A stretch of DNA of 42,801 nucleotides from Candidatus Binatia bacterium (lineage in GTDB: Bacteria; Desulfobacterota; Binatia; UBA9968). The translations under genes and the position numbers were made by a program. The stretch covers positions 1-42,801 of the forward strand of contig DATBEY010000363.1 of the NCBI GenBank assembly GCA_036558765.1, in the 5' to 3' direction. Below the pieces are notes generated by a model. The model did not search any database. It was not told the origin of the DNA and saw only the letters and a list, made by a program, of their open reading frames with translations. Each line of letters starts with the position of its first letter. The stretch's first letter is position 1. Of the stretch, positions 2,519 to 27,760 are shown in pieces.

Positions 2519-2541
2519 CTCGACCAACCATCGCGTCCACG

Positions 2542-5500: not shown

Positions 5501-5551
5501 TGACGATCCGTTAAGTTTTAGCGAATTACTCCGGCGGCGCAGGTGTGGGTT

Positions 5552-6094: not shown

Positions 6095-6106
6095 AACTAA
6101 AAAAAT

Positions 6107-8673: not shown

Positions 8674-8892
8674 GTGGATAGGATCAGCCGGATGGATCAC
8701 GAGAACAGCGTCAAGAAGATGCGTGAAGCGAAGATGCTCAGCAAGACTGAATTAGCACGGCTGGCGGGCATTTCTCTACTCACTCTCAATCGAATTGAAG
8801 ACGGCAAAGATTGTCGCGTGGCGACCAAGCGCAAAATCCTCTTGGCTCTGGGCCTTACGCCAGAGCAAAAGCAAACTCTTTTCAAGCGTTAA
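8674..8892 (+). CDS. XRE-family helix-turn-helix protein (small)
   Basis: 72 aa (GTG start; alternative ATG at 8692). HTH signature LSKTELARLAGISLLTLNRIEDGK. The TAA stop is 1 nt before the pilM ATG. Confidence 0.7.
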   Translation: MDRISRMDHENSVKKMREAKMLSKTELARLAGISLLTLNRIEDGKDCRVATKRKILLALGLTPEQKQTLFKR

Positions 8893-8893
8893 G

Positions 8894-10602: not shown

Positions 10603-11222
10603 ATCAGATACTCGACGCCATCCTGGAGCGATCGACAGCGCAGAAAGTTGCGATTCTCGGGGTGAGTGTGATTTTGATCGCGGCACTCTATTACAGTTTT
10701 TTGTTTAGTCCGAAAGCGGACGAGGTCGCGAAATTGGCAGACAGTGTGGAAATTGCGCGCAACGAGAAAACCGTCAAGACCCAAAAAGCAGCGAACTTGT
10801 CGCGTTTACGTCAAGATCTGCAACGCCTCGATGCCGAGCTAAAAAAGGCCATCGCTCAGCTGCCCGAGAAAAAGGAAATCCCGGAGTTGCTGAGCAGTAT
10901 TTCCAGCAAAGCCCAGCAGTCGGGCCTCGATGTTCTGCTGTTTCGTCCGCGCCCGGAGAGCTATCAAGAATTTTATGCGGAAGTACCGGTGGATATTACG
11001 GTCAAGGGCAATTTTCACAACACGGTAAATTTTTTTGACGACGTTGGGCGAATGAACCGGCTCGTGAACATCGACAATATCGGTTTTAGGAATCCTACCG
11101 TGAGTGGCGATAACGTGGTGCTGGAGACCACCAGTGTCGCCACCGCGTTTCGCTTTCTCGATGACGCGGAGCGAAAGAAAGTCGCCGAAGAGAAGGCGAA
11201 AGCTGCCAAAACGAAAAAATAG
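10599..11222 (+). CDS. pilO: Type IV pilus assembly protein PilO
   Basis: 207 aa. TM, coiled coil and ferredoxin-like C-terminus (VPVDITVKGNFHNTVNFFDDV). 4-nt overlap with pilN. Confidence 0.85.
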   Translation: MNQILDAILERSTAQKVAILGVSVILIAALYYSFLFSPKADEVAKLADSVEIARNEKTVKTQKAANLSRLRQDLQRLDAELKKAIAQLPEKKEIPELLSSISSKAQQSGLDVLLFRPRPESYQEFYAEVPVDITVKGNFHNTVNFFDDVGRMNRLVNIDNIGFRNPTVSGDNVVLETTSVATAFRFLDDAERKKVAEEKAKAAKTKK

Positions 11223-11228
11223 AGAGCG

Positions 11229-11840
11229 ATGCATTCGCACATTAAAATCGTCCTTATTCTGGTTATCAGCCTAACCGCGGCCTTAAGTTACGGTGCTGAA
11301 GAACCGATGCCCTCAGATAAAATGAGAGAAGCCGTGGGCAAGTTGAACAAGGCACCGGCGAGCATTGGCCAGAGTTTACGGGGATTAAGCGACGCGGCGG
11401 CGACGAAACTGAAGCAGATCTCCGGTACCGGTCGGCCCGCGCCGGAATCCAAGCCGCTCGACATGACCCTGCCGCAGAAGAAGAGCGAAATTGCACCGCC
11501 GGCGCACGTGATGAAACAGGAGGGACGCGATCCGTTTCGTCCGATGACGCTTAAAAGCAATGGGCCGTCGCGGTCACGCGAAAACCTTTCGCCGCTCGAG
11601 CGCTTCGACATCGGGCAGCTCAGGATTGTAGGGATTGTATGGGACGTTAAAGAACCGCGAGCGATCATCGAGGACAGCGCCGGCCTTGGTTACACTGTCA
11701 AAATTGGAACTCCGATTGGCAGTAACGACGGTCGAGTGAAAGTGATTCGGCGGGACCAGATCATTATCGAGGAAGTTTATGAAGATGCTTATGGCGCCCG
11801 AAAAAAACGCGATATCGCAATGCGACTCTCAACGGAGTAG
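11229..11840 (+). CDS. pilP: Type IV pilus assembly protein PilP
   Basis: 203 aa. Signal peptide, RDPFRP motif and a C-terminal beta domain. Position between pilO and pilQ. Confidence 0.8.
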   Translation: MHSHIKIVLILVISLTAALSYGAEEPMPSDKMREAVGKLNKAPASIGQSLRGLSDAAATKLKQISGTGRPAPESKPLDMTLPQKKSEIAPPAHVMKQEGRDPFRPMTLKSNGPSRSRENLSPLERFDIGQLRIVGIVWDVKEPRAIIEDSAGLGYTVKIGTPIGSNDGRVKVIRRDQIIIEEVYEDAYGARKKRDIAMRLSTE

Positions 11841-11845
11841 CGAGA

Positions 11846-13858: not shown

Positions 13859-13891
13859 CCTGCTCCAACTTATTACGCTAGGATAGCGCGC

Positions 13892-15088
13892 ATGTTGCGC
13901 TACCTGACCGCGGGCGAATCGCACGGCCCCTGCCTGACGATGATTATCGACGGGGTCCCCGCGGGCTTTCCGATTCAAATCGAAAAAATCAATCATGATC
14001 TTTGGCGCCGTCAGCAGGGCTACGGACGCGGCGGCCGCATGTTGATCGAGAAAGACGAGGCACAAGTTCGTTCGGGCATTCGCTGGGGCGAGACGATCGG
14101 CGCGCCAGTGGCGCTGGGCATTGAGAACCGCGATTGGAAAAATTGGACCAAGAAAATGTCCGCGCTTCCGGAAGACCGCGACGACAAAATCGCCGTTACC
14201 AAACCGCGTCCTGGACATGCTGACCTCAATGGCGCGCTTAAATACGATCGCTCGGATATTCGCGATATTCTCGAACGAGCGAGCGCCCGCGAGACCGTGG
14301 CGCGCACGGCGGTCGGATCTTTCGCCAAACAGCTGCTGGCGCCCTTCGAGATCCGCATCATGGGTTACATACGTTCCATTGGCAATGTCGCGGCCAACCT
14401 GAGTCCGCTTTCGTTCAATGAGATCTACGCCCGCTCGGAAGAGTCGCCGGTTCGAACTGCCGATCCCGATGCCGAAGAAAAGATGATTGCTTTGATCGAG
14501 GAGTGCAAAAGAGAAGGCAATACGCTCGGTGGTATCTTCGAAATTGTGGTGCTCGGGTTGCCGCCGGGATTGGGTTCCCATACCCAATGGGATCGCAAGC
14601 TCGACGGACGATTGGCCCGCGCCTTGATGAGCATCCAGGCCATGAAAGGCGTGGAGATCGGACTCGGTTTTGAAATGGCACGGCGGCGTGGCTCTCAGGT
14701 CCATGACGAAATTTTCTTCGATCCGAGTAAGGATGTGAGCGAAGGGACTCCACGCGTCGTGCCGACAGGGTTTTACCGCGGCAGTAATAACTCAGGAGGC
14801 ACGGAAGGCGGCATGAGCAATGGCGCGCCGTTGATCGCCAGGGTGGCCATGAAGCCAATTTCAACTTTGATGAGTCCTTTGCAATCGGTGGATCTTCGCT
14901 CAAAGCAGCCTGCCGATGCTTCGGTAGAGCGTTCGGATGTTTGCGCGGCGCCGGCCGCAGCGGTGGTCGGCGAGTCCGTGGTCGCGTTTGAGATCGCTCG
15001 GGCATTTCTGGAGAAATTCGGGGGTGATTCATTGCGCGAGGTTCGGCGTAATTACGAAAACTATTTGGAGCAAATCAAGAGCTATTAG
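13892..15088 (+). CDS. aroC: Chorismate synthase
   Basis: 398 aa. N-terminus MLRYLTAGESHGP, RPGHAD motif, and Gly-rich FMN region. Confidence 0.95.
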   Translation: MLRYLTAGESHGPCLTMIIDGVPAGFPIQIEKINHDLWRRQQGYGRGGRMLIEKDEAQVRSGIRWGETIGAPVALGIENRDWKNWTKKMSALPEDRDDKIAVTKPRPGHADLNGALKYDRSDIRDILERASARETVARTAVGSFAKQLLAPFEIRIMGYIRSIGNVAANLSPLSFNEIYARSEESPVRTADPDAEEKMIALIEECKREGNTLGGIFEIVVLGLPPGLGSHTQWDRKLDGRLARALMSIQAMKGVEIGLGFEMARRRGSQVHDEIFFDPSKDVSEGTPRVVPTGFYRGSNNSGGTEGGMSNGAPLIARVAMKPISTLMSPLQSVDLRSKQPADASVERSDVCAAPAAAVVGESVVAFEIARAFLEKFGGDSLREVRRNYENYLEQIKSY

Positions 15089-15189
15089 GCAGGGGTCGCG
15101 CGAAATCGTAGTTGAAGAATTGCGACATGCTTCGTCGCCTAGTGGAGCGCGGCAGCTACCGTTACGTAACAGACTTGGTTTTTTCTGCA

Positions 15190-15729
15190 ATGTCGCGGAA
15201 CATCGCGCTCATCGGGTTCATGGCGGTCGGCAAGAGTGCGATTGGCCGCACTTTGGCAAAAAAGCTGCGTCGCCGCTTCGTCGATCTGGATCGAGTGATT
15301 GAAAGAGCCGAAGGCCGCAAGGTGCGCGAGATTTTCGAGCACAAGGGCGAGGCATACTTTCGGCAGCTGGAAAAGCAGGCGCTGGCGGAAGTGTTGGAAA
15401 AGAATAACCAGATCATCGCGACCGGCGGCGGAGTCATTCTCGACGATCAAAATCTCCAGATACTCCGAGAAAAGGCGCTCCTAATCGGCTTGTCCGCCGA
15501 GATGGATGTGTTGCTTGCGAGAGCCGGTGATGCAACGAAAAGACCCCTTTTGCAAGGAAGTCATCGCCGGGAAAGGATCGAGGATCTGCTGCGCCAGCGC
15601 GCAGCGCGGTATGCCCAGGCTCATGTGACCATCGATACCAGCAATTTGACCGTGGATCAGGTGGTAAAAAAGATTATGGGTATGCTCGAGGTCGGAAAAA
15701 AACCGTCGGATGGAAACTGTAAAAGTTAA
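15190..15729 (+). CDS. aroK: Shikimate kinase
   Basis: Walker A LIGFMAVGKSAIG sits right after the ATG at 15190. The ORF-track start 15112 adds 26 atypical residues, so the start is uncertain. Overlaps aroB by 20 nt. Confidence 0.88.
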   Translation: MSRNIALIGFMAVGKSAIGRTLAKKLRRRFVDLDRVIERAEGRKVREIFEHKGEAYFRQLEKQALAEVLEKNNQIIATGGGVILDDQNLQILREKALLIGLSAEMDVLLARAGDATKRPLLQGSHRRERIEDLLRQRAARYAQAHVTIDTSNLTVDQVVKKIMGMLEVGKKPSDGNCKS

Positions 15730-16786
15730 TTTGGGCGATCGTTCCTACCCGATCTATGTCGGCGCTGGAATTCTCGATAGCCTCGGCCAACGGCTGCAAG
15801 AATCCGGATTGGCACGCAAAGTCGCCGTTGTCACTAACCCGACGGTCGCGCAACTCTACCTCGACGCCGTGCATGGCTCGCTCCATCACGCCGGATTCGA
15901 AGTCGTACCGATTCTCGTGCCCGATGGGGAGGAACATAAGACGTTCAAATCGCTGGCGACCATCTACGATCGGCTCATTGCCGAGCGCTGCGAGAGAAAA
16001 TCCTGTGTTCTTGCGCTTGGTGGTGGTGTGATTGGAGATCTCGCCGGTTTTGCCGCAGCCACTTATCTCCGTGGTGTCGCGTATGTCCAAGTGCCAACGA
16101 CATTGCTCGCGCAAGTGGATTCGAGCGTCGGCGGCAAAACCGGCGTGAATCATGAAAACGGAAAAAACCTGATCGGAGCTTTTTATCAGCCCAAGCTTGT
16201 TCTCATCGACGTCAACATGCTCGCTTCGCTGCCCCATCGAGAGCTCGTTGCGGGTCTCGCCGAGGTGATCAAATATGGCATCATCGAGGACGCGCAGCTT
16301 TTTCGGGATGTGGAAAAAGATCTCGCAAAGATCATCGCGCTGGATCGCGAGTTGTTGCGGCGAGTTATCGTGACGTCTTGTTCGATCAAGGCCCGAATTG
16401 TTGAAACGGACGAGCGCGAGGAAAATCAGCGTGCCGTGCTCAACTTTGGGCACACGATCGGGCATGCATTGGAAGCGGCGACGGATTACCGGGAGTTTCT
16501 GCACGGTGAAGCCGTAGGGATCGGCATGGTCAAAGCCGTCATGCTCTCGGTGCAGCACGGTTTTTGTGACCAGCAAACCTATGAGCGTATTCTCAAGGTC
16601 ATCAAAAAAGCCGGCTTGCCGAGTGAAATTCCCGCCCGCCTCTCGATGCAGAGTGTGATCGACGCCATGCAGCTAGATAAGAAAACAGCCGGTGGCCGGA
16701 TCAAATTTGTGATGTCTGAAGGGATCGGGAAAACTCGTTTCCATTGGCTTTCGCCGGGAGAAGTTTTGTCTGCATTAGAGAGGTAG
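15710..16786 (+). CDS. aroB: 3-dehydroquinate synthase
   Basis: 358 aa. GGGVIGDLAGFAAATYLRG NAD motif and metal ligands in LNFGHTIGHALE. Confidence 0.95.
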   Translation: METVKVNLGDRSYPIYVGAGILDSLGQRLQESGLARKVAVVTNPTVAQLYLDAVHGSLHHAGFEVVPILVPDGEEHKTFKSLATIYDRLIAERCERKSCVLALGGGVIGDLAGFAAATYLRGVAYVQVPTTLLAQVDSSVGGKTGVNHENGKNLIGAFYQPKLVLIDVNMLASLPHRELVAGLAEVIKYGIIEDAQLFRDVEKDLAKIIALDRELLRRVIVTSCSIKARIVETDEREENQRAVLNFGHTIGHALEAATDYREFLHGEAVGIGMVKAVMLSVQHGFCDQQTYERILKVIKKAGLPSEIPARLSMQSVIDAMQLDKKTAGGRIKFVMSEGIGKTRFHWLSPGEVLSALER

Positions 16787-16819
16787 TTCGGACAGCGTGG
16801 TTCCGACGAAGGAGACTCG

Positions 16820-17263
16820 ATGGCCAACATGCAGATTCTGGTGTTGAATGGTCCCAATCTTAATCTGCTCGGCAAGCGGCAGCCGGAGATTTACGGCAGC
16901 CTGAGTCTTTCGGATATCGAGCAGCAAGTGCGCGCGCTGGCCAACGAGCTTGGCGTCGAAATCGAATTTCGCCAGTCAAACAGCGAGGCCGAACTGATCG
17001 ATTGGATCCATGATAGTGCCGGCAAATTCGGCGCTCTGGTCATCAACCCGGCAGCTTACACGCATACCAGCCTGGCATTGCGAGACGCCATTTCGGCGGT
17101 GGGAATTCCGACAGTGGAGATTCACATTTCCAATATTCACAAACGCGAGCCGTTCCGGCATCATTCCTACATCGCGGAAGTCGCGGTCGGTCAGATCGCC
17201 GGCTTCGGCGCGACGAGTTATCTTTTGGGGCTACGCGCCGCGGTCCAGTTACTCCAAAAATAA
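16820..17263 (+). CDS. aroQ: Type II 3-dehydroquinate dehydratase
   Basis: 147 aa. [31 protein letters not shown] and EIHISN motifs. Confidence 0.95.
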
Positions 17264-17980
17264 CGAACCGACTTCGAATCCTTTTCCTCGCATTTCATCG
17301 ATCACTCTTTGCCGCTCGTTTTCGATTTGGCCGATGCGCGCTCTTAGATCGCTCAGCTCTCTTTGTTTTTCTGTATAAGCGGGCGGCGCATCGAGCGAAA
17401 ACTGTGGAGATGTCGCCGCGCTGCCTGTCGGCAGTCCTTGCGCTCTATTTTGAGCATCGCGCAAGCGAGACAACAAGTCATCTTGCTGGCCTTTGAAGGC
17501 TTCCTGGGTGGTAAAGAAACTTGGGTCGGGACCCTGGTTACCTCGTGTGATGAGTGAATAGCGGTCCCGCAGTTCTTTCAACTGTGCAGTCAAGTTTTTT
17601 AGCCTGTCCTCGTACGCCTTTGCTTCTGCGGCGCGCTGTTTAGCTTGTTGTTGCTCAACCGAAACCGTAGCGGGCGGTTTAGCCTGCGGCGGTTGGACCG
17701 CTGTCGGGGCAGGTTCCGGCGGGTTTTTACCGGGACGATCATCTAATGACAGAGGACGGGAACTGGCACTCTCGGAAGCTTCAGCGCGGCGGATCGTTTG
17801 AATTTGATCCTTGCTGATGGCGAGTTCGCCGCCCAGGCCAGAAAATTTGATCATGCTCCCTTCCTCGCGATAGTTCTGCACCGTCAGTTGCCGACCATTC
17901 TTTAAAACCACAACGTACTGTGCGTCCGCGATGGCGAAACCCATGGAGAGCAACGCTACGACCAGGGTAACCTTCAACAT
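17249..17980 (-). CDS. Secreted coiled-coil protein, function unknown
   Basis: I chose the ATG at 17980 ([20 protein letters not shown] signal peptide). The ORF-track start 18208 would overlap the divergent VWA gene. Layout is a small beta domain, a Pro/Gln-rich linker, then a long heptad-like C-terminus. The 3' end overlaps aroQ convergently by 15 nt. Confidence 0.6.
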
Positions 17981-18086
17981 GGGACGGATTATAGCACGAC
18001 GCTCGCTATTGAGGTATGCAGCCTGGACGGACTCTTTTATGCCCGGAGCAATCGTGTTAGCGTCGGCATGTCGGAGAGGTTGATTT

Positions 18087-19334
18087 ATGAACCTGTTTCG
18101 ATGTGCGCTTGTTAGTGCTTTGTTCTTTTGCATTGTTGGTTTAGACCCCGTTGCTTCGGCACAACCCAAAGTACAGATTCTTTCGCCCAAAAACGGCACG
18201 CAGATCACCCAGGATCAAAAATCAGTTTTGGTCAGCGGCAAGGTTGCGCGAGAGGCAGGGCGATCGGGAAATGTCGACATCTTTTTAGTGATCGACGTTT
18301 CAGGGAGCACTGCACTTTATTCCGGGGCGGACCTAGGCGATGCCGATCAACCTCCGGAAAGCACAGGTTTTCCGACGCCGCAAATCAGCATTGGCGGCTT
18401 CGGCCTCGGCGGACCGCCGATACGCAATCCCAGAAATTCCGTTCTTGCCGCAGAGGTTGCGGCTGCACGCCGCCTGCTGCTTCAACTCAATCACGAGACG
18501 ACACGGGTCGGCGTCTTGAGCTTCAGCGACCGCGCCAATTTACTCCAGCCGCTCACCCATGATTTCGAAATAGTTCGAAAAGTTTTGGCCGACGTGCTGC
18601 GCTCGGGTTCTTACGGCGGTACGAATATGGTCGAAGCGATACGGCTAGCCATCAGTGAGTTGATGGGATTCGGCACCAGCGAAAGGCGCACCGACGCCAT
18701 CAAAGTGCAATTCCTTCTCACCGATGGGTTTCCAACTCTGCCGATCGGTGAAAGCAAGAGAATGACACCGGAGGATGTCGCGCTGACGATCAACGCGGCA
18801 CGGTTGGCCGGCAAAGCGGGCATCAAGGTCCACGTCTTCGCTCTTGGGGAGGAAGCGCTCTCTTATCCGCGCGCCGCGATCGGTATTGCCAAAGAAAGCG
18901 GCGGCACTTATACGCCGGTGGTGCGGCCGGCGGATGCGCTGGCGGTGCTCGAAAACATCTCGGTGGTCGGTGTTGATTACGTGCAGGTCATCAACCAGAC
19001 GATCGGGCAGAAGGCGACACAATTACGGTTAGCGGCCGACGGGTTTTTTTCCTCGGCAGTGCCCGTGACCGAAGGAAAAAATCAAATCGATGTCTTGGCG
19101 CGGGCGAGTGACGGTGGCAATGCTCGTGAATCGATCACGATTTATTATCAGCCCGGCACACAAAAGTCCCTGGACTTGGAAGTCTTCCTAGAAAAGGAAA
19201 AGAATCTCCAACTCGAAGTAAACCGGCTCGGCAAAAGTCCGGCAGAAATTCAGCGGGAAGTCGAGCGCAATCGTGAAGATAGTCTGAGCAAGCCGCAGCA
19301 GCTGCCGCCACCGACGGAAGGACCGGCGCGATGA
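18087..19334 (+). CDS. Secreted von Willebrand factor type A (VWA) domain protein
   Basis: 415 aa. Signal peptide, and a complete MIDAS (DVSGS ... GGTNM ... LLTDG). C-terminal beta-sandwich-like region plus a charged coiled tail. Confidence 0.8.
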   Translation: MNLFRCALVSALFFCIVGLDPVASAQPKVQILSPKNGTQITQDQKSVLVSGKVAREAGRSGNVDIFLVIDVSGSTALYSGADLGDADQPPESTGFPTPQISIGGFGLGGPPIRNPRNSVLAAEVAAARRLLLQLNHETTRVGVLSFSDRANLLQPLTHDFEIVRKVLADVLRSGSYGGTNMVEAIRLAISELMGFGTSERRTDAIKVQFLLTDGFPTLPIGESKRMTPEDVALTINAARLAGKAGIKVHVFALGEEALSYPRAAIGIAKESGGTYTPVVRPADALAVLENISVVGVDYVQVINQTIGQKATQLRLAADGFFSSAVPVTEGKNQIDVLARASDGGNARESITIYYQPGTQKSLDLEVFLEKEKNLQLEVNRLGKSPAEIQREVERNREDSLSKPQQLPPPTEGPAR

Positions 19335-19364: not shown

Positions 19365-19790
19365 CTAGCGGGGTTTTCTTTCCGCTTCAGCCGCGATGGC
19401 GATTTCAGAGGCGCCGGCGCGTTTGATCATCGACATTACCTTGACGGTGTCGCCCAGCAGCACATCTTTGTCGCCACGAAGAATCACGGTCTTGTCAGCG
19501 CGAGCGTTGAGCGCATCCTGAAGGACTTTTTCCAGATTCTCTTCCTTGACGATTTTCTGGTCGACATAAATTTCGTGTTTCGGGGTGATGGTCACCGTGG
19601 TGCCGCGCGATTCTGACTGAGTCGCAACGGCTTTCGGCAAGTTCACTTTCCCGCCGGACTCAATCATCGCCGAACTGGTGATCATGAAGATAATCAGCAG
19701 CACGAGGAAAATATCCGTCAATGGAGTGATATTTATCTCAGCGACGATATCGGAATTGTCTTCGTTTCCACCCATCGGGGTGATAGCCAT
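19365..19790 (-). CDS. exbD: Biopolymer transport protein ExbD/TolR
   Basis: 141 aa. INITPLTDIFLVLLIIFM TM motif with the conserved Asp, and a periplasmic domain. Confidence 0.9.
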   Translation of the reverse strand: MAITPMGGNEDNSDIVAEINITPLTDIFLVLLIIFMITSSAMIESGGKVNLPKAVATQSESRGTTVTITPKHEIYVDQKIVKEENLEKVLQDALNARADKTVILRGDKDVLLGDTVKVMSMIKRAGASEIAIAAEAERKPR

Positions 19791-19797
19791 GAAATCC

Positions 19798-20424
19798 TCA
19801 CGCGCTCATGAGCTGGACAATTTTAGCGGCTTGGATGCGGAACAGGCCCGTAAGCATTGAGATGCGGGTTTGGAAATAGTTATAAAAAATGACCGCGATG
19901 ATCGCGACGCCGAGACCTAATGCGGTCGCCACCAAAGCTTCGGAGATGCCGGCAGCGACGACGGCAAACCCGCCGGTTCCGGCGATCGCCATACTTTCGA
20001 AGGATTTAATAATTCCCACCACCGTGCCGAGCAGACCGATAAAGGGAGCGCTGCTTGCGACTGTGCCTAGGATCCACAGATTTTTCTTCAATTTCTGGGT
20101 TTCTTCGAAGAGCGCTTCGCTGACGATGCTGTTGGCGGCTTCCAGGCGCGTGCTGCTTTCCCGTTCCAGGATGTTCAAAAAAATTCTGGCGACGGGCCAA
20201 TTCGAGTTTTGTTTACAAATGGCAATCGCCAAATCGCGCTGCCCTTTTTTGACCGGTTCGAGAATGGATTCAGTGACTCGAAGCGTAATCGCACCGAGAT
20301 TTCTAAGCGACCAGAGACGCTCAAACACCACGGTCAAGCTGATGATCGACAGGAGAATCAACGGGTAGGTCGCTATGGCGCCTTTATGGATAATGTCGAT
20401 GAGATCGAGACCTTGCGGCTGCAT
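19798..20424 (-). CDS. exbB: MotA/TolQ/ExbB proton-channel protein
   Basis: 208 aa with three TM segments and the conserved APFIGLLGTVVGI motif. 7 nt upstream of exbD. Confidence 0.9.
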   Translation of the reverse strand: MQPQGLDLIDIIHKGAIATYPLILLSIISLTVVFERLWSLRNLGAITLRVTESILEPVKKGQRDLAIAICKQNSNWPVARIFLNILERESSTRLEAANSIVSEALFEETQKLKKNLWILGTVASSAPFIGLLGTVVGIIKSFESMAIAGTGGFAVVAAGISEALVATALGLGVAIIAVIFYNYFQTRISMLTGLFRIQAAKIVQLMSA

Positions 20425-20516
20425 TAAATTTCCTTCCGATGATCGGATGATGATTACCTTATACCAAAATTATTGCAATGAACCCGGGCGGATTCGGACT
20501 GTCTCTGCAGGGATGG

Positions 20517-21548
20517 CTAGCCGCGCACACCGATGGTGACGGTAAATTGCATGCGCAGAGGGGTGTTGGCCAGGTCTTTCAATGTCTCAGGGATCGGCGG
20601 GAATGGTGATGCGCGCTTCATCGCCTCGACCGCGCTGGCATTCAGTCTCGCGTCAGTGGACTCCAGCACTTCCGAGCGCATGAGTCTACCCGCTTTGTCG
20701 AGTGTGAATAAGATGGCGACTTTTTGCACGCCGTTGACACCGTCGGGATACTTCCACACGGACTCCACTCGTTTCTTGAGCTGGCTAAGATATTGGTTGT
20801 AATCAGCGCTCGATAAGCCCCTCAGTCCGGTCGTGCTGCCGCCGCCACTGCCGGTTCCCGTACCCCCGCCGGTTACGCCTGTGCCGGTAGTACTGCCGCC
20901 GGGGACGCCATACGGGCCTAATCCCGTTCCTGTTCCTTTGAGAGCGCCGGGGATCTGCGTGCCCTCCTTGAGCGCCTTGATGCCGGGACCTTCTCCCGCG
21001 CCTTTTAGTGCTGCCAGGGATTGCTGCTGACGGAGATCCAGATCAGCAGTATTGCTGGGAAGATTTGTCGGACTGTCCTTGGTAGGCAAGCGCACCAATG
21101 AGTCCGGTGACGTTTCCTTTGTATTTACCGATTCGGCGCGCGAATCTGAAGCCAAGATCTTTGGCGCAGGCAAAGGCGCTGGCGTCGGAGGCGGCGCGGT
21201 TTCAGCGGGAGTACTGCTTGGAACCGAAGTTTCAATCGAGCCTTTATCCAATCTGCCGGTCCGCTGCGCGGGCGCTGTCGGAGTTCCCAGTTTTGGCATC
21301 GTGCGCGGCCCGCCGGGACCACTGCCTGGACCGATACTCTTGTTCCGGGATGTCCCTTCTCTTGGTTCCAGTAGCTGCACAGAAATCGGCGTTTGCTCAG
21401 GTTGTGCTATCGGCAACATCGCCGCGCGCAAGGCGAGCAATGCAAGCATCGAGTGAAACAACACCGAGGGGATGAGAAAAGGACTGCGGAATAGCGAGAG
21501 GACGCTAAAGTCTTCCCAATCAGCGGTGATCTGCTGCATTTTCGTCAC
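20517..21548 (-). CDS. TonB/TolA-family energy-transducer protein (C-terminal TonB domain)
   Basis: 343 aa. Layout is an N-terminal TM, a Pro-rich segment (PAETAPPPTPAPLPAPK), a Gly/Thr-rich segment, then a C-terminal TonB_C-like domain (VWKYPDG..VAILFTLDKAGRL..ASPFPPIP). Confidence 0.8.
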   Translation of the reverse strand: MTKMQQITADWEDFSVLSLFRSPFLIPSVLFHSMLALLALRAAMLPIAQPEQTPISVQLLEPREGTSRNKSIGPGSGPGGPRTMPKLGTPTAPAQRTGRLDKGSIETSVPSSTPAETAPPPTPAPLPAPKILASDSRAESVNTKETSPDSLVRLPTKDSPTNLPSNTADLDLRQQQSLAALKGAGEGPGIKALKEGTQIPGALKGTGTGLGPYGVPGGSTTGTGVTGGGTGTGSGGGSTTGLRGLSSADYNQYLSQLKKRVESVWKYPDGVNGVQKVAILFTLDKAGRLMRSEVLESTDARLNASAVEAMKRASPFPPIPETLKDLANTPLRMQFTVTIGVRG

Positions 21549-22689
21549 CGGGAAGAGAAATTTTCGTCAATTCGGTCATCGCTGCGGGGAGCTCTTCTTT
21601 CTTTGAGAGTATTTCGAGCCCGACGGCACTGACATCGCGCCGAACGAGGCGACCATTTTCATAATACGTCCATAAGTCCGCGACGCCGTCACCGTTGAGA
21701 TCGCGCTCTTCTTTGAGAACGACCTCGCCATCTTTGCTGGCGTCATAATAAGTCCACAGATCAGGCCGGCCAGCGCCGCGCGTGTCTTTCTCGAGCTTGG
21801 CGAGTCGGCCATTCTGATAAATGGCGCGATAAGTGATACTTCCCAAGCCGGCCTCGTCACGCTCTTCGCGAATAATTTTGTCGTTATCGTAGAAATATAC
21901 TGTATCGGGTCTGCCGAGTTGCTTAGTATCGACCTCACGGCGAACCATTTTGCCTTCTTTGAAGTAGCTCCAGGTATCGACACGGCCGTCGCCTTTTGTT
22001 GACTCTTCTTGACGAATAATTTCACCCGGCTTTTGTGGATTATAATAAATCCACAAATCTGCGACGCCATCGCCGTTCAAGTCGCGCACTTCAACGTTTT
22101 TAAATGGACTCGGCGGTGTTTGGGCGACGGCCGGTTTGCCCAGGGACGCGATGCTAGTGGTCTCGCCGGGGAGTTGCTTGGTGGATGATGGTTGTGCGGA
22201 GTCTCGTGGCTGAGCCGTAGGGTTTGAAACCGGTTGCACGGGCGGCTCGGTTTTGGCGCTGCTATCACCGGCTTGGGCAATTTGATTTTCCAAGCCGCGC
22301 TGCCGTGCCAATTCTTGGTCGATGGCGGCTTCTAGCTGCTGATCTTTTTTCTGCTCTGTAGAGATCTGATTGTTAATCTGACCGTAATAGGAGTCCGCCG
22401 TGACCAACCCGGTGATCAGACCAATGATCAAGCCGCCGCCCGCTCCATAGGGTCCGGCGAGGGACCCGCCCATCGCGATGCCTTCCATCGCCTTATTCCA
22501 GGCGTGCTGCCAGCGCTGCGAGCCGGTAATGTCAGGATTTTGAGGCGCGGACGCAGAGGTATTCACGGGATTGCCAGGATTGGTAGGATTTTGCCCGGGG
22601 GACACAGGCGGAGGCTGCGTCGCCATGGGATCGCACGCGTAGAGCACGACAATGTGCAGTAGCAGCAAGAGGCTGAATCGCGCTCTCAT
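21520..22689 (-). CDS. Putative lipoprotein: glycine-zipper + coiled coil + DxNGDG/WxYY repeat domain
   Basis: 389 aa. Signal peptide with a possible lipobox LYAC and a Pro/Asn-rich linker. Glycine zipper GGSLAGPYGAGGGLIIGLITGL, then coiled coil (QISTEQKKDQQLEAAIDQELARQRGLENQIAQ). C-terminal part has about 6-7 repeats such as RDLNGDGVADLWTYYENGRLVRRD. The 3' end overlaps the tonB-like start by 29 nt. Confidence 0.65.
   Translation of the reverse strand: MRARFSLLLLLHIVVLYACDPMATQPPPVSPGQNPTNPGNPVNTSASAPQNPDITGSQRWQHAWNKAMEGIAMGGSLAGPYGAGGGLIIGLITGLVTADSYYGQINNQISTEQKKDQQLEAAIDQELARQRGLENQIAQAGDSSAKTEPPVQPVSNPTAQPRDSAQPSSTKQLPGETTSIASLGKPAVAQTPPSPFKNVEVRDLNGDGVADLWIYYNPQKPGEIIRQEESTKGDGRVDTWSYFKEGKMVRREVDTKQLGRPDTVYFYDNDKIIREERDEAGLGSITYRAIYQNGRLAKLEKDTRGAGRPDLWTYYDASKDGEVVLKEERDLNGDGVADLWTYYENGRLVRRDVSAVGLEILSKKEELPAAMTELTKISLPGDENAADHR
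21628..22104 (-). repeat. Protein-level tandem repeats (about 24 aa) within the 389-aa lipoprotein
   Basis: By eye, residues about 196-354 show a recurring D-x-x-G-D/x-G-x-x-D-x-W-x-Y-Y/F-x-x-G-x-h-x-R-x-E unit. Confidence 0.6.
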
Positions 22690-22712
22690 AGATAAACCTT
22701 GAAACGCGGATC

Positions 22713-23930
22713 TTACTTTATTTGCCGGTCCAAAACCAATCCGGAAACAGCGTTGCTCGCGGGGCTCTGTATCGCCGTTGTGGCATCGAGAGCGCTTTTG
22801 AGCTCTTCCTCGATAGTCCTAAATGGCTTGGAAACCCTTGGCGGCTCGAGATTATCCAAAGTCTCTTGACCAACGATCTGGCCGCCTTTGAAAATGTAGC
22901 GAGCGGTAATTTTTCCCTGATAATTCTGATCTTCGAGCTGTTCAATTCGCTCGCCGTTTTGAAAATTTACCCAGACATCGACACGACGATCACCATTGGT
23001 ATCCGCCTCTTGGGCAACCAACTGCCCTTTATCGTAAATGGTTCTAAAATCAAGGACGCCCGTGCTCTTCGTATCACGCTCTTCGCGCACGAGTTGATTA
23101 TCCTCAAAGTAGTAAACTGTATCCCATTTGCCGGTGCCTTTTGTGTCGCGCAGCCGCTTGGTCACGCGGCCAACGGAAAAGAATTCAATCATATCCATAC
23201 GGCCGCGGTGCGCGGTATCCTCCTCTCGGCGGATGACCTCGTCGCCCCGGAAGTAAACGACTCGGCTAACTTTGCCGTCGCCTTGGAGATCCTCCTCCTG
23301 TTTGATCAAGCGACCATCCTGGTAATAGCCCCAAAGGTCGATTTTGCCGGTATGTTTGCGATCGACCTCTTTACGCACCAATTGGCCGTTCTCAAAGTAA
23401 GAGAAAGTATCGGGCTTGCCGTCTCCATTGCTGCTTTCTTCAATCCGGACAACCTTGCCATCCTTGTAAAAAACCTGCCGCTGTCCAGTACTCGCGGTAT
23501 TCCCCGACTCCTCGCTCCGCACCGGTTGCCCATTCTCGTAATATACCCACAAAGTCGGCTGGCCCGAATGGTTTGTATCTTGACCTTTCCGCTCAACTTC
23601 GCCTTTGCCGTTTAGGTAGAGCCAAGTGTCGATCTGCCCGTCATTTTTACTGGCGATTTCTTGACGCACCGGTTTTCCCGCTTCGTAGTAGGTGATCGTA
23701 TCGGATTTGCCGTCAAAATTGACGTCTTGTTCGAGCCGCTGGATTTGTCCATTGGAATCATAATAGATCCAGCGGTCCATTTTGCCATCGCCATTGGTAT
23801 CCTGCTCTTGACGCGTCACGCTGCCACGTTCGTCGTAGTAAAAACTTGCGATCGGCTGCTGCGAATAGCCGGGCGCCGCTGCCGCGAGCAGCAGCAGCGT
23901 GGTCAAGCAGCAAATACCGGATTGGGTCAT
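22713..23930 (-). CDS. Secreted tandem-repeat protein (about 14 x 24-aa DxNGDG / WxYYxNG repeats)
   Basis: 405 aa. Signal peptide CCLTTLLLLAAAAPGYSQQ. Almost the whole mature protein is repeats such as DTNGDGKMDRWIYYDSNGQIQRLEQ and SNGDGKPDTFSYFENGQLVRKEV. Confidence 0.7.
   Translation of the reverse strand: MTQSGICCLTTLLLLAAAAPGYSQQPIASFYYDERGSVTRQEQDTNGDGKMDRWIYYDSNGQIQRLEQDVNFDGKSDTITYYEAGKPVRQEIASKNDGQIDTWLYLNGKGEVERKGQDTNHSGQPTLWVYYENGQPVRSEESGNTASTGQRQVFYKDGKVVRIEESSNGDGKPDTFSYFENGQLVRKEVDRKHTGKIDLWGYYQDGRLIKQEEDLQGDGKVSRVVYFRGDEVIRREEDTAHRGRMDMIEFFSVGRVTKRLRDTKGTGKWDTVYYFEDNQLVREERDTKSTGVLDFRTIYDKGQLVAQEADTNGDRRVDVWVNFQNGERIEQLEDQNYQGKITARYIFKGGQIVGQETLDNLEPPRVSKPFRTIEEELKSALDATTAIQSPASNAVSGLVLDRQIK
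22836..23846 (-). repeat. Protein-level tandem repeats (about 14 units of about 24 aa)
   Basis: Repeat boundaries were drawn by eye from the translation, residues about 29-365. Confidence 0.6.
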
Positions 23931-23965
23931 CGCTCATCCTGGAAAGCAGAGCGCGTGATCCGAGC

Positions 23966-24169
23966 TTACGAGTTCGACTTATTTTTGGAGTCGTGCAGAG
24001 CTTGTGGATTATCGGCCGGAGTAGTCTCGCTATCATTGATCGCCTTCTTAAATCCGCGGATGGCTTCGCCGAGCGATTTGCCGAGCTCAGGAAGTTTGCT
24101 CGGGCCGAAGACCACGAGGGCCACGATAAAGATTACGATCAATTCTGGGGCGCCAAGACTGCCGAACAT
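23966..24169 (-). CDS. tatA: Twin-arginine translocase subunit TatA/E
   Basis: 67 aa. MFGSLGAPELIVIFIVALVVFGPSKLPELGKSLG is the canonical TatA TM plus amphipathic helix. SD GGAGGTG lies upstream. Confidence 0.92.
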   Translation of the reverse strand: MFGSLGAPELIVIFIVALVVFGPSKLPELGKSLGEAIRGFKKAINDSETTPADNPQALHDSKNKSNS

Positions 24170-24193
24170 ACGTCACCTCCGGCGGCAAAAATC

Positions 24194-24222
24194 ACGCTAC
24201 GATACAGGGTAAGGCTTGTCAA
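24194..24222 (-). promoter_or_regulatory. Sigma70-like promoter for tatA
   Basis: On the minus strand: TTGACA (24217-24222), a 17-nt spacer, then TAGCGT (24194-24199). This is about 25 nt upstream of the tatA ATG. Confidence 0.4.
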
Positions 24223-24340: not shown

Positions 24341-26089
24341 TTGTCGCGCGCCGAAACGATCGACGATTTCCCTGACACCCGCTCCCCGGGCGACCTTCTA
24401 CATGACTGGCTGCCATGGCTTCTGACCGCGGCAGTTACTTTTGTTCTGCTCAATCAATTGGGGAGCGCAGCGCTTTTCGAGCCCGACGAAGGTCGCAACT
24501 CCGAAAAGGCTCGGGAAATTCTCGTGCTGAACGATTGGGTTACGCCACACGAGAATTTTTACCCGGTTCTGGACAAACCCATTTTTTTTTATTGGCTGAT
24601 TGCGGTTTTCTATAAGCTCCTCGGCGTGTCGGAATGGACGGCTCGCCTGCCTTCGTTCTTGGCTGCCCTCGGTTGCCTCGTGTTGGTCTATCGTTTTGCT
24701 CAGTCTCATTGGGGACGTTGGGTGGCGTTGTGGAGTGCGCTGATTCTCGTGACAAGCGTTGAGTTCTTTATTCTAGGGCGGATCGTGATCTTCGATATGC
24801 CGCTTACTTTTTTTGAAACCATCGCGCTCTTGGCATTCTACGAAGCCCAGCGTAGCGAGAATCGTCGTCGGCGCGCGGCTCTTTGTCTGGCCATGTATCT
24901 CGCTCTCGCCGTGGGAACTCTCATCAAAGGCTTGGTCGGGCTCGTCATTCCTGGGATGGTGTTCTTCCTTTTTATTTTGCTGCGGCGACGGTGGCACGTT
25001 TTACGGCGAATGTATCTGGTTCCCGGGGTTGGTATTTTTATTGCCGTCGTTCTCCCGTGGTATCTTCAGGCCGAAGCGCGAAACCCTGGATACCTCCATT
25101 ATTATCTATGGGCAGAGCATTTCGGTCGATATACCAGTGCGACCTTCGATCGTTCGGAGCCATGGTACTATTTCATTGTCGTTGCCCTGATTGGTTTCTT
25201 TCCATGGACGGTTTTGCTGCCTTGGATGATCAAAAATCTTTGGCGCAGAAGTTGGAATGACAAAACATGGTACCTCGTGATTTGGGTATGCGTGCCGCTG
25301 TTGTTTTTTTCCGCTGGCAATTCAAAGTTGCCGCATTACATCCTACCGATCTTTCCTGCCGGTGCCATACTGGCGGGCGCAACAGTAGTTAGCTTGTGTG
25401 AAAAATCTGCGGCCAAATTGCGACTAGCCCTATCTCTAATCTGGGTAGTGCAGACCGTGAATGGTCTGTATTTGTTGCTTGGATCGTTTTATCCGAGGAT
25501 CTTGACGCATCAACTTCGCGATCGGTTTATCGGCATGGCGGATCTGCTTTGGGTTTATGCGATAGGTTCACTGCTGATCCTGAGTTATATGGCGACGAGA
25601 AGTATTCACGATGCGCGGGTGCGCCCAAGCCTCATTTACCTTGCGCAGCTTGTCGGCTTGGGCATCTTCCTTGTGTTCCTTACGCAGATGATGGTCGCAT
25701 TATCGCCGGATCGATCCGCTAAAACGACTGCCATGGCAGCATTGGCTCAGCTGCGGACGGGAGCGCAAGTCGTATTTTTCGAAACGTATATGTCAGGAAT
25801 GCCTTTTTACCTCCACAGCGAGCGACCGATTTGGCTGATTACGCACGATGAAAAAAAGCGCACATTTCTCGGAAACTACTATGTCATCGGCAAACGGCAG
25901 GATTCGTTGACGCTACGGGGAAAAGCGATTTTCAATATGGACGATTTTCGTGAGCAATGGAAGACTCGAAAACAGCCGCTGCTGGTCATCGTCAAGGAAA
26001 AAAACTTTAACCGGCTGGTCGAGACCGTTGGCGAAGCACTGAGCCCCGTGGCGGCGATTGACGAATACTTCTTGGTGGCAAAACGCTGA
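24341..26089 (+). CDS. GT-C fold glycosyltransferase, family 39 / ArnT-like (polyprenyl-phosphate-sugar dependent)
   Basis: 582 aa with more than 10 TM segments. The first periplasmic loop motif LFEPDEGRNSEKAREI resembles the DE..Y.E.AREM motif of ArnT/PMT enzymes. TTG start as in the ORF track. Confidence 0.8.
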   Translation: MSRAETIDDFPDTRSPGDLLHDWLPWLLTAAVTFVLLNQLGSAALFEPDEGRNSEKAREILVLNDWVTPHENFYPVLDKPIFFYWLIAVFYKLLGVSEWTARLPSFLAALGCLVLVYRFAQSHWGRWVALWSALILVTSVEFFILGRIVIFDMPLTFFETIALLAFYEAQRSENRRRRAALCLAMYLALAVGTLIKGLVGLVIPGMVFFLFILLRRRWHVLRRMYLVPGVGIFIAVVLPWYLQAEARNPGYLHYYLWAEHFGRYTSATFDRSEPWYYFIVVALIGFFPWTVLLPWMIKNLWRRSWNDKTWYLVIWVCVPLLFFSAGNSKLPHYILPIFPAGAILAGATVVSLCEKSAAKLRLALSLIWVVQTVNGLYLLLGSFYPRILTHQLRDRFIGMADLLWVYAIGSLLILSYMATRSIHDARVRPSLIYLAQLVGLGIFLVFLTQMMVALSPDRSAKTTAMAALAQLRTGAQVVFFETYMSGMPFYLHSERPIWLITHDEKKRTFLGNYYVIGKRQDSLTLRGKAIFNMDDFREQWKTRKQPLLVIVKEKNFNRLVETVGEALSPVAAIDEYFLVAKR

Positions 26090-26157
26090 GGGCGAGAATT
26101 CTTTGTTCTGTACGGCTCAACAAAGGATGATGGTGGGGGTTCTAAAACGAGGCAGGC

Positions 26158-26976
26158 ATGCATGATCTATTGATTGCAACTCTCTTGGGAATTGTGGAAG
26201 GAATTACCGAATTTTTGCCGGTATCATCCACTGGGCATTTAATCATTTCCGGCCATCTGCTCGGGTTTGTCGGCGACCAGGCAGCGAGTTTTGAGGTCAT
26301 CATTCAGCTCGGTGCGATTCTTTCGGTGGTGCTGCTCTACTGGCGCCGATTCGTCGGTTTGATTCCCGCTTCTGTGAAGGCCTTTGAGGCGTCAAATCTG
26401 GAGGGCTGGTCAGGTCTTTGGCGCATCGCGCTCGCAACGTTTCCGGCCTTGGTCGTGGGCTACGGCGCACGCCATGTGATTAAGGAGCAACTGTTCAACC
26501 CGTCGGCCGTGACATTGGCTCTAGCTGTTGGCGGCATCGCCATTCTGCTCGCCGAGCGTTATGCCGCAAAGCGAAAGACCAATAGTCTCGAAAGGCTGAC
26601 GCTTCCCCAAGCCCTGGGAGTCGGTCTTTTCCAGGTGCTCGCCCTTTGGCCCGGTACATCGCGCGCCGCGGCAACCATTGTCGGCGGGATGCTGCTCGGT
26701 TTAGATCGGAAAAGCGCTGCTGAGTTTTCGTTTTTGATTGCGGTGCCCGTGATGCTGGCAGCGAGCGGCTACGAGCTGATCAAGATGCGCCATGAAATGG
26801 CGCTGCAAAACATGTTGCAGCTCGGCGTCGGTTTTGTGATTTCCTTTATAGTGGCGCTCATCACCGTTAAAGTTTTCGTCAGTTTTCTTCAGCGTGGAAA
26901 GCTTACGCCTTTTGCCTGGTATCGCATTCTCGTGGCGCCGATTTTTTATTTTTTGACGCGTGGCTTAAAATTTTGA
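26158..26976 (+). CDS. uppP: Undecaprenyl-diphosphate phosphatase
   Basis: 272 aa. EGITEFLPVSSTGHL and PGTSRAA motifs of BacA/UppP. Confidence 0.93.
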   Translation: MHDLLIATLLGIVEGITEFLPVSSTGHLIISGHLLGFVGDQAASFEVIIQLGAILSVVLLYWRRFVGLIPASVKAFEASNLEGWSGLWRIALATFPALVVGYGARHVIKEQLFNPSAVTLALAVGGIAILLAERYAAKRKTNSLERLTLPQALGVGLFQVLALWPGTSRAAATIVGGMLLGLDRKSAAEFSFLIAVPVMLAASGYELIKMRHEMALQNMLQLGVGFVISFIVALITVKVFVSFLQRGKLTPFAWYRILVAPIFYFLTRGLKF

Positions 26977-26998
26977 AGCCAGCCGTTCCACGCCGCAG

Positions 26999-27760
26999 CT
27001 AACGGTGATCGTGACGCTGCTTGATCCAGGCGAAGATCTGGTTTCGGTACAGGTAAGCAAGACCTAAAGCGGCGAGCGACACAAAGGCAAAGATCACGAA
27101 CGTGTGGTATTCCTCGTTGCGAATAGTTGCGCCCTGCATGGTGAGCAGATAGGTACCCGGGATCCGTCCGATCACCGAAACAATCAAAAAGGTGCTGAGC
27201 TTCATCCGACTCAGTCCAAGGACATAACACAGGTAGTCTTTCGGGAACCCAGGAAAAAGAAACAGCACGAAGCAGATGAAGGTGCCGGTTCTGGTGGTTA
27301 GAAAATTGAATCGTTCAAGAACTTCCCGCTTGACGAATCGTTCAACGAACGGCCGGCCGAGAATGCTTGCCAATTCGAACGCGACCCACGAGCCCAAGGA
27401 CAATCCCACCGTTGACAAGAGAAAGCCGACGGTTTCGCCGTAGACATAACCTCCGGCAACGCCCGTGAGCTCCCCGGGGAATGGCGCTGCCACGACTTGA
27501 AGAACCTGCAACAGCACAAAAACCGCAGGTGAATACGGACCAAGGCTCTGCAGAAACTTGCTGAGTTTGTCCCGATTCGAGTAGATCCCCTCGAAATCGT
27601 CGAAATCCTCGCCCGCCGGAGCGAACGCAGTGAATGGTCGCGGAATGTAGCGACTGAAGAAAAAGAGCAGCACCACCACCGCGATGAAGATGACGCCTCG
27701 AATCGCGAGTTGGCGACGCTGATTGGTCATCCCAACCTTATAACAATAAAAAAATCGCAA
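26999..27760 (-). CDS. TVP38/TMEM64-type DedA-superfamily membrane protein
   Basis: 253 aa (TTG start). Multi-TM with the SNARE-associated/DedA core pattern (PFPGELTGVAGGYVYG ... FPGFPKDYLCYVLGLS). Confidence 0.75.
   Translation of the reverse strand: MRFFYCYKVGMTNQRRQLAIRGVIFIAVVVLLFFFSRYIPRPFTAFAPAGEDFDDFEGIYSNRDKLSKFLQSLGPYSPAVFVLLQVLQVVAAPFPGELTGVAGGYVYGETVGFLLSTVGLSLGSWVAFELASILGRPFVERFVKREVLERFNFLTTRTGTFICFVLFLFPGFPKDYLCYVLGLSRMKLSTFLIVSVIGRIPGTYLLTMQGATIRNEEYHTFVIFAFVSLAALGLAYLYRNQIFAWIKQRHDHR

Follow-up and report, generated by a model that had tools for sequence, protein, structure and literature searches.

Where an ExbB/ExbD-type motor and a TonB-family energy transducer are encoded together and no outer membrane receptor lies beside them, on what does the motor act? 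This question is raised by a locus on a contig of a Candidatus Binatia bacterium (GenBank assembly GCA_036558765.1, contig DATBEY010000363.1, positions 1 to 42,801; the whole 42.8-kb stretch is referred to here as the window), in which tonB-like, exbB and exbD genes follow two genes, rep1 and rep2, that encode a secreted protein and a lipoprotein sharing the same repeat. A preliminary description made from the sequence alone had proposed that these repeat proteins are partners of the motor. The proposal drew support from gene order in 17 Binatia loci, a divergent Binatia locus (L025), an operon in Methylomirabilota and 42 of 52 metagenomic loci. With a probability of roughly 55%, in our estimate, the locus encodes a proton-motive force (PMF)-driven trans-envelope force-transduction module, whose conserved partners would be rep1, rep2 and a VWA-domain protein instead of a neighbouring barrel. 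The predicted conserved set comprises rep1, rep2, TonB, ExbB, ExbD and the VWA protein, and these six genes have stayed associated in two phyla despite several independent rearrangements.

Gene calls were based on an open reading frame (ORF) listing together with Pfam and NCBIfam family scans, the Pfam scan covering the large ORFs of the window that were judged to be genes. These scans found no TonB-dependent receptor, TolB or Pal among the large window ORFs, so that the reported lack of a receptor and of tolB-pal at the locus held across the scanned 42.8 kb. The accompanying premise, that tonB-exbBD genes normally sit beside a receptor, was overstated. It has been shown that tonB frequently lies apart from the motor genes as well as from receptor genes (PMC12204202), and a missing neighbouring receptor is hence not unusual in itself. 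No receptor turned up within 10 kb on either side of the 17 Binatia loci, although these flanks were searched for homologues of window genes only, with no TonB-dependent receptor query.

The motor and transducer are genuine family members and possess the motifs on which coupling depends. Proteins of the ExbB/TolQ family form the proton-channel subunit of a 5:2 motor, and the transmembrane Asp26 of the ExbD-type protein is conserved (in PLTDIFLVLL). The TonB-like protein has a transmembrane helix with an SxxxH motif (S28-VLF-H32, read from the sequence), followed by a motor-box-like strand (P54-ISVQLL) that resembles the E. coli TonB motor box (QPISVTMV), and by a non-helical, Pro/Thr/Gly-rich linker. 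Its C-terminal domain, which contains a YP motif, passed the cut-offs of PF13103 and TIGR01352 (scores in the table) and scored 21.7 against PF03544, under the cut-off of 24.6. The closest solved structure by sequence was domain III of E. coli TolA (3qdp, E 5e-4), before TonB (6sly, E 5e-3).

Sequence did not separate ExbB/D from TolQ/R, as every equivalog model remained under its cut-off (exbB product: TolQ 112 < 221, ExbB 83.5 < 206; exbD product: TolR 91 < 127.3, ExbD 70 < 216; TonB-like protein: TolA 25.1 < 59.45). The top NCBIfam matches of the exbB and exbD products were TolQ and TolR; among solved structures, TolQ and ExbB tied for the exbB product (E 1e-14), and ExbD was slightly ahead of TolR for the exbD product. 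A 2025 survey describes the TolA proteins of non-proteobacteria as rich in Pro and "virtually indistinguishable from TonB" (PMC12204202), which means that only context separates Ton from Tol, and TolB and Pal are absent from the context here.

In a scan of species-representative genomes the window fell within Candidatus Binatia, its best-matching locus being 96% identical. Within the Binatia, gene order was compared across 27 related loci, each with a rep1 orthologue. The order rep1-rep2-tonB-exbB-exbD was kept in 17 of these, down to 49% rep2 identity, and in 16 of the 17 a VWA gene was convergent with exbD; five further loci agreed up to the contig end. The preliminary description had named gene order in other genomes as one of two points on which its proposal could fail, and the proposal came through this comparison. 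In the divergent locus L025, the order is tonB-rep1-rep2, the genes meeting at junctions of 4 and 3 nt; the neighbourhood is an unrelated one, with neither tatA nor exbBD. A 4-nt overlap of tonB and rep1 occurs in L025 and also in L102 and L104, the loci of the two Methylomirabilota genomes described below. One other locus (L002, tatA-rep1 and then TrkH) was set aside as uninformative, being on a frameshift-ridden long-read contig.

In Methylomirabilota, all module genes were found in a co-directional operon in two genomes (JBHIAB010000124 and DATAFX010000051), in the order Gly-zipper lipoprotein, rep2-like lipoprotein, VWA, exbB, exbD, tonB, rep1-like. Metagenome contigs L103, L105 and L106 encode a TonB protein identical to that of DATAFX01, and L103 to L106 effectively represent one further genome or population beside L102. 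Relative to the window, full-length identity was 35%–38% for the VWA protein (E 8e-64 to 2e-66) and 35% for the rep1-like protein (404 versus 405 aa), and identities of 44%–45%, 39%–40% and 38%–49% were obtained for exbB, exbD and the C-terminal domain of tonB, respectively. Here the exbBD-tonB operon itself includes the rep2-like and VWA genes, the junctions between them measuring 8 to 11 nt; junctions in the operon overlap, and the flanking genes of L102 and L104 differ. In another candidate phylum and in another order, the same six components thus remain together.

More distant homologues point in the same direction. A metagenome scan yielded 52 loci of distant long rep1 homologues (GC 0.39–0.75; 0.39–0.74 for those linked to Ton genes), which are about 590 or about 1,050 aa long, share 26%–45% identity among themselves and contain the same repeat. 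At least one of exbB, exbD and tonB lay within 42 of the 52 loci, comprising 30 with rep-exbB-exbD(-tonB) in order and at least six with tonB-rep and divergent exbB-exbD. Among the 10 loci without Ton genes, six had too little flank to judge, including L065, where only a receptor was found upstream. Rep1-type genes thus repeatedly open or close the exbB-exbD-tonB operons of other lineages. One such operon (L030, positions 78–7913) has a distant rep homologue as its first gene, then exbB-exbD-tonB, an FmdE-domain gene and a TonB-dependent receptor, with an extremely His-rich small ORF upstream on the opposite strand, and looks like a metal-uptake locus. A 525-aa protein with 12 rep1-type repeats and a TonB C-terminal domain (P0219, L101 positions 130–1707) would, if real, be a rep-TonB fusion. 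It was rejected as evidence, because it occupies a single 1.9-kb contig and its ORF runs on into a fragment of a periplasmic amino-acid-binding protein, so that it is probably an assembly chimera.

The repeat family as a whole is large: a HMMER search over 1.84 billion representatives gave 3016 clusters at 50% identity (E ≤1e-3), or 878 at E ≤1e-10. It includes short members without Ton neighbours (L086–L100, L028 and L029). In two members (P0254 and P0280) the hairpin repeats are fused to HEAT/PBS-lyase-type repeats, and others carry DUF2007 (PF09413). These combinations suggest that the repeat ribbon is used as a modular building block.

Rep1 has a Sec-type signal peptide with no twin-arginine motif, and its 14 repeat copies follow the 24-residue pattern D-x-N-G-D-G-K-x-D-x-W-x-Y-Y-x-x-G-x-L-V-R-x-E-x; the repeat domains of rep1 and rep2, which we regard as paralogues, are 29%–41% identical. 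No tandem DNA repeats were found beneath the protein repeats, and because no tandem repetition is left at the DNA level, the repeat is predicted to be old at that level. In an AlphaFold2 model of rep1 (m12e9ad97ae57; pLDDT 84.9, pTM 0.70), 28 strands form 14 consecutive hairpins, followed by a C-terminal helix. In the model of rep2 (m2e65d52a40e1), a long helix and disordered linkers precede a domain of six hairpins (pLDDT >90). Both proteins are therefore modelled, with high confidence, as open-edged beta-hairpin ribbons. A fold search returned only generic hairpin sheets, namely Rhs/teneurin YD shells, engineered OspA single-layer sheets and the SdgB/TarM DUF1975 domain, and the TM-scores for rep1 (at most 0.46 normalised by target and 0.37 by query) were too low for a family assignment. 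A sequence search of solved structures (PDB) with rep1 and rep2 gave no match at E ≤1.

The repeat loop, D-x-N-x-D-G-x-x-D, is of the EF-hand, dockerin or FG-GAP type of Ca2+ site, and weak Pfam matches to FG-GAP, together with precomputed EF-hand_5 and Dockerin matches on homologues, are consistent with a loop of this kind. Binding of a lanthanide or Ca cargo was considered and rejected, as the loops have no lanmodulin-like features and are mostly degenerate. Against named families, rep1 scored 28.8 for MORN_2 (PF07661; cut-off 29.6), for which rep2 gave no match, and rep1 and rep2 scored 61 and 39.6 for Lsa25.6 (NF050087), both under 150. DUF6802 (PF20615) matched neither protein at E ≤0.01; among the long homologues one passes (P0010, 36.4 > 27) and the L077 protein is borderline (26.7). 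Homologues carry the JGI label "YwqK antitoxin", and none of the papers found in a literature search mentions the DUF6802 family.

Rep2, for which at least 594 homologues were retrieved, has a signal peptide ending in LYA-C19 with Asp at position +2, and C19 is nearly invariant in 31 homologues (alignment A1). Its sequence continues with a strongly conserved Gly-rich hydrophobic segment (residues ~66–98; AMEGxAMGGSxAGPYGAGGGLxIGLxTGL), a coiled-coil helix (~84–143), a variable P/Q/S linker and the repeats. The isolated Gly-zipper/coiled-coil segment had no Pfam match, and we call it Gly-zipper-like by resemblance and by reference to the separate PF13441/PF13488 lipoprotein of the Methylomirabilota operon. 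That first gene of the operon (L102, positions 449–1048; L103 and L105, 2654–3241; L104, 2486–3073) encodes a protein of 195–199 aa with Gly-zipper_YMGG, Gly-zipper_Omp and Rick_17kDa matches and a C-terminal beta domain; no separate Gly-zipper lipoprotein occurs in the Binatia, where the Gly-rich segment sits in rep2 itself. No peptidoglycan-binding domain was recognisable in rep2. Its localisation is uncertain, as the Asp at +2 could mean retention in the inner membrane, by an E. coli rule that may not apply here. Right after the lipidated Cys (residues 19–44, window 22560–22635), most Binatia orthologues in alignment A1 carry the peptide P-V-P-V-Q-Y-P-P-G-S. This peptide is degenerate in the window rep2 and absent from rep2-like proteins that are not linked to Ton genes; the +2 residue is Asp or Glu. 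We regard it as a candidate docking peptide.

The VWA gene is a candidate sixth component of the module, which the preliminary description had not noticed. Its product has a cleavable signal peptide (cleaved between ASA and Q), intact MIDAS residues (DVSGS...GGT...TDG), an Ig-like C-terminal domain and a coiled tail. The N-terminus, MNLFRCALVSALFFCIVGLDPVASA followed after cleavage by QPK, forms a cleavable Sec signal whose helix contains neither His nor Asp and which lacks a lipobox, and the VWA homologues of L102 and L104 have the same type of signal. In a high-GC lineage (L087, positions 2877–5854; L086; the P0015 locus), a rep2-like Gly-zipper lipoprotein is encoded with a convergent full-length VWA homologue (E 1e-55) and with no Ton genes nearby. 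There, the pair adjoins patatin/TANGO2 genes and, once, an OmpA-domain gene. Rep2-like lipoproteins with the architecture of rep2 are found in L087 and L102. It looks as if tonB-exbB-exbD had been inserted into an older rep2/VWA pair in the Binatia.

How these components could work together can be outlined as follows. ExbB/ExbD would energise TonB via its SxxxH helix and motor box, and the TolA-like C-terminal domain of TonB would dock by beta-strand augmentation on the open edge of the rep1/rep2 ribbons, a candidate site being the strand A-x-[FI]-[YH]-Y-D, which is conserved at the N-terminus of mature rep1. To our knowledge, beta-augmentation is the way in which TonB and TolA bind all known partners. 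Rep1 would be soluble in the periplasm and rep2 lipid-anchored through its Gly-zipper/coiled-coil stalk, with Ca2+ bound by the D-x-N-x-D-G loops stiffening the ribbon. Rep2 and the MIDAS-bearing VWA protein would form the distal end, so that force would be passed on to an assembly of lipoprotein and VWA protein located at the outer membrane or beneath it. Candidate outputs are outer-membrane tethering, remodelling, exposure of a VWA adhesin, or help for ordinary receptor gating, and the TonB of the module may also serve unlinked receptors.

Several observations weigh against a module of this kind. Synteny within the Binatia is by itself weak and not independent evidence, because the whole VTT-BacA-PMT ... 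aroQ neighbourhood, ~20 kb, is collinear across them. The rep2-VWA pairing seems to exist in its own right, and the pair can presumably work without a linked motor, because such pairs occur with no Ton genes nearby (L087, the P0015 locus). Binding of Ca2+ by rep1 is uncertain, because the strict motif D-x-[ND]-x-[DN]-G is kept in 2 of its 14 loops (about half of the loops in long homologues elsewhere conform). A TonB-dependent receptor is also present in 17 of the long-homologue loci, from which it follows that the repeat protein could be a general accessory of ordinary Ton uptake. The view expressed in the preliminary description that this is not a classical uptake system is accordingly unproven: a homologous repeat protein heads receptor-holding operons elsewhere. 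Much of this would fit the main rival explanation, a housekeeping Ton system in which a general tonB-exbB-exbD set serves receptors elsewhere, rep1 is a periplasmic accessory (a scaffold or spacer, or a cargo or metal binder) and rep2 and the VWA protein are a separate envelope pair. We consider this possible but rather doubtful. It is supported by the 17 loci in which distant rep1 homologues head rep-exbB-exbD-tonB operons with or beside a receptor, one of them (L030) with the FmdE-domain gene and His-rich ORF, and it agrees with the common separation of tonB from receptors (PMC12204202), with the rep2-like and VWA pairs lacking Ton genes and with the resemblance of the loops to EF-hand, dockerin and FG-GAP Ca2+ sites. 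However, rep2-like and VWA genes sit within the exbBD-tonB operon of Methylomirabilota at its short junctions, L025 keeps tonB with both rep genes and neither motor nor receptor, and neither the window scans nor the 17 Binatia flanks (searched as described above) revealed a receptor. Moreover, the degeneracy of most Ca-type loops in Binatia rep1 argues against a metal-cargo role there.

A different arrangement of the same parts would be an analogue of Tol-Pal, with rep1 in the role of TolB and rep2 in that of Pal, stabilising or constricting the outer membrane where canonical TolB and Pal are absent or additional. The number and topology of the components fit (motor, transducer, soluble beta-rich periplasmic protein, lipoprotein), the C-terminal domain of the transducer is nearest to TolA domain III and is classed by Pfam as TonB_2, TolQ and TolR are the top NCBIfam matches, and a Pro-rich TolA indistinguishable from TonB is on record outside the Proteobacteria (PMC12204202). 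We nonetheless hold this to be unlikely: neither a TolB beta-propeller (PF07676/PF04052) nor an OmpA-type Pal domain (PF00691) was found in rep1, rep2 or the scanned window ORFs, the TolQ, TolR and TolA equivalog scores fall short, no peptidoglycan-binding domain can be recognised in rep2, which could, with Asp at +2, be retained in the inner membrane, and related rep proteins accompany Ton operons that contain receptors. That the adjacency means nothing, rep1 and rep2 being unrelated adhesin-like proteins (MORN-variant or Lsa25.6-like) held in place by conserved gene order, is very improbable. The collinear VTT-BacA-PMT ... aroQ region, the weak resemblance to MORN_2 and to the Lsa25.6 adhesins of Leptospira, and the many short family members without Ton neighbours would be expected in that case; yet the association recurs in at least four gene orders with varied flanks, at GC contents of 0.39–0.74 and in at least two named phyla, gene junctions overlap, and 42 of 52 long-type loci have Ton genes, against well under 1% for a random gene (our own estimate, unmeasured).

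The force-transduction module favoured here does not include tatA, which the preliminary description had placed at the head of the unit. This placement did not survive comparison, since tatA precedes rep1 in 16 loci but 10 related ones retain the other genes without it, the Methylomirabilota operon also lacks it, and no twin-arginine signal was found in rep1, rep2 or the VWA protein. TatC had no match among the scanned large window ORFs; a solitary tatA is not unusual. Because of these absences, tatA is best regarded as a passenger neighbour outside the conserved module, possibly co-transcribed with it. In L016 (positions 9735–11215), only tatA followed by a rep1 orthologue (68% identity) is present, beside pyruvate kinase in another context. 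Hence the tatA-rep1 pair can seemingly move as a unit, though tatA is dispensable elsewhere. Promoters had been described upstream of tatA and, internally, before exbB. The sequence strings are present (a perfect -35 TTGACA at 24222–24217, a 17-nt spacer and a weak TAGCGT upstream of tatA; a TTGCAA / TGgTATAAG-like element before exbB), but a consensus promoter scan gave four sites against 3.4 ± 1.6 in shuffled sequence, no excess, and listed neither of the two.

The layout of the locus (table) reproduced exactly the six closely packed minus-strand genes of the preliminary description, with spacings from tatA to exbD of 35 nt, 23 nt, a 29-nt overlap (rep2/tonB), 92 nt and 7 nt. Its account of a TonB-like gene overlapping a lipoprotein gene, preceded by a secreted protein of the same repeat, was likewise borne out.

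Table. Genes of the locus and the convergent VWA gene, with window coordinates and family scores.
Feature	Position	Strand	Description
tatA	23966-24169	minus	67 aa; PF02416 75.5 bits (> 21), TIGR01411 73.2 (> 53.9)
rep1	22713-23930	minus	405 aa; secreted, 14 tandem 24-aa beta-hairpin repeats and C-terminal helix (predicted)
rep2	21520-22689	minus	389 aa; predicted lipoprotein, 6 repeats of rep1 type (residues 199-353)
tonB-like	20517-21548	minus	343 aa; TonB-family energy transducer; PF13103 (TonB_2, TolA-like) 37.7 bits (> 22), TIGR01352 40.5 bits (> 27.1)
exbB	19798-20424	minus	ExbB/TolQ-family proton-channel subunit; PF01618 114.2 bits (cut-off 22.9)
exbD	19365-19790	minus	ExbD/TolR-family subunit; PF02472 95.9 bits (cut-off 25.4)
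VWA gene	18087-19334	plus	secreted VWA protein, convergent with exbD; PF13519/PF00092/PF09136

Around these genes, the window holds a type IV pilus cluster, pilM-pilN-pilO-pilP-pilQ, followed directly by aroC, aroK, aroB and aroQ (8795–17263; the classic pil-aro linkage), which ends ~2.1 kb from exbD, with pilQ ~5.5 kb from exbD. A functional tie of the module to pilMNOPQ, by analogy with TonB3/PocAB, was rejected, its sole basis being this ~5.5-kb distance within a commonly conserved pil-aro cluster. Divergent from tatA (24341–27760) lies an envelope-glycolipid group, comprising an ArnT/PMT-family glycosyltransferase (582 aa; 196 bits, short of the cut-off of the ArnT model) together with UppP/BacA and a DedA/VTT protein, which adjoins the module across the Binatia. 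Between the aro genes and the VWA gene, a 319-aa ORF on the minus strand (17249–18208) overlaps the VWA start. Because orthologue alignments begin only near residue 75–78, the true gene within it probably starts near 17980 and encodes a secreted Pro-rich/coiled-coil protein of ~243 aa with a signal peptide; the gene is kept beside the VWA gene in the Binatia only.

Besides TolB-Pal, the Glt complex and TonB-dependent barrels, few clients of TonB/TolA-type transducers are known to us. Should the ribbons prove to be genuine partners of TonB, Ton motors would have a wider range of clients and many genes annotated as "hypothetical" or YwqK would gain a function; if rep1 is instead a general Ton accessory, it would still be a new subunit of a well-studied machine. 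The analysis in either case identifies an uncharacterised protein family, with a DUF assignment only, whose long members lie almost obligatorily beside exbB-exbD-tonB, and a six-gene set conserved across two candidate phyla. The Binatia and Methylomirabilota phyla are abundant in soils and sediments. A bolder interpretation, which we advance tentatively as something short of an even chance, is that the locus represents an undescribed class of TonB-dependent machine, in which the transducer, driven by ExbB/ExbD, would pull on open-edged Ca-loop ribbons (rep1 and rep2) holding the VWA protein instead of on a plugged barrel (a trans-envelope tether or adhesin-exposure device), with the six-gene set in Binatota and Methylomirabilota and the rep1-type ribbon as a widespread, overlooked Ton accessory in other lineages of low to high GC. 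A search of the literature on MORN, YwqK, DUF6802, EF-hand and VWA proteins together with TonB or ExbBD found no description of such an association, and the 2025 survey stresses that further PMF-driven 5:2-motor systems remain to be found (PMC12204202).

Compared with the MORN-variant/YwqK, DUF6802 and Lsa25.6 families, the repeat proteins share 22- to 24-residue beta-hairpin repeats with a Y-Y-x-x-G core, and long homologues pass DUF6802. Rep1 and rep2, however, score below the cut-offs, have an extra D-x-N-G-D-G-K-x-D loop and lack a toxin partner, and no TonB link is described for any of these families. Similarity to the Ton system lies in ExbB, ExbD and a transducer of the TonB family (SxxxH helix, motor-box-like strand, Pro-rich linker and C-terminal domain above cut-offs), in the common Ton order tonB-exbB-exbD and in the distant rep homologues of receptor-containing Ton operons. 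Differences are that the conserved neighbours here, two beta-hairpin repeat proteins and a VWA protein, are not described Ton components, that the scanned window ORFs include no receptor (adjacency not being required for membership) and that the transducer ends in a TolA-like domain of the PF13103 type. Tol-Pal likewise pairs its motor and transducer with a lipoprotein and with a soluble periplasmic protein rich in beta structure, and its TolA domain III is nearest to the C-terminal domain found here; the present locus differs in its gene order, in equivalog scores below cut-off and in lacking a TolB propeller, an OmpA-type Pal, CpoB and YbgC.

The Agl-Glt machinery of Myxococcus xanthus offers another parallel, as the TonB-C-terminal-like domains of GltG and GltJ bind a non-barrel periplasmic protein (PMC11761067) and its TolQR-type motor finally acts on the VWA adhesin CglB (PMC9946355, PMC11761067). 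Both systems would thus have a TolQR-type motor and TonB-C-terminal-like proteins acting on non-barrel partners, ending in a VWA protein and lipoproteins. In contrast to Agl-Glt, the VWA protein of the present locus carries a Sec signal that is cleavable and no lipobox, and the GltA/B/H barrels, the TPR proteins GltC/D/E and MglA-linked parts were not seen in the Pfam scans, in which coverage of Glt proteins is weak and which involved no direct comparison. We know of no motility in the Binatia or Methylomirabilota phyla. Williams-Jones et al. (2025, PMC12204202) proposed that VWA genes found in synteny with TolQR-like motors encode a new type of force transducer; their survey mentions neither the repeat family nor the Binatia and Methylomirabilota phyla. 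The VWA gene conserved beside a TolQ/ExbB-TolR/ExbD motor is common to both; the proposed transducers, however, are themselves held in the membrane, either by an SHLS helix or by a TolR-like pore helix with Asp, and take the place of TonB, whereas the VWA protein of the present locus is made with a cleavable, His-free signal peptide and is accompanied by a separate TonB. Overall, the gene content and order of the locus point to a variant force-transduction system of Ton/Tol type whose accessory proteins are widespread and uncharacterised.

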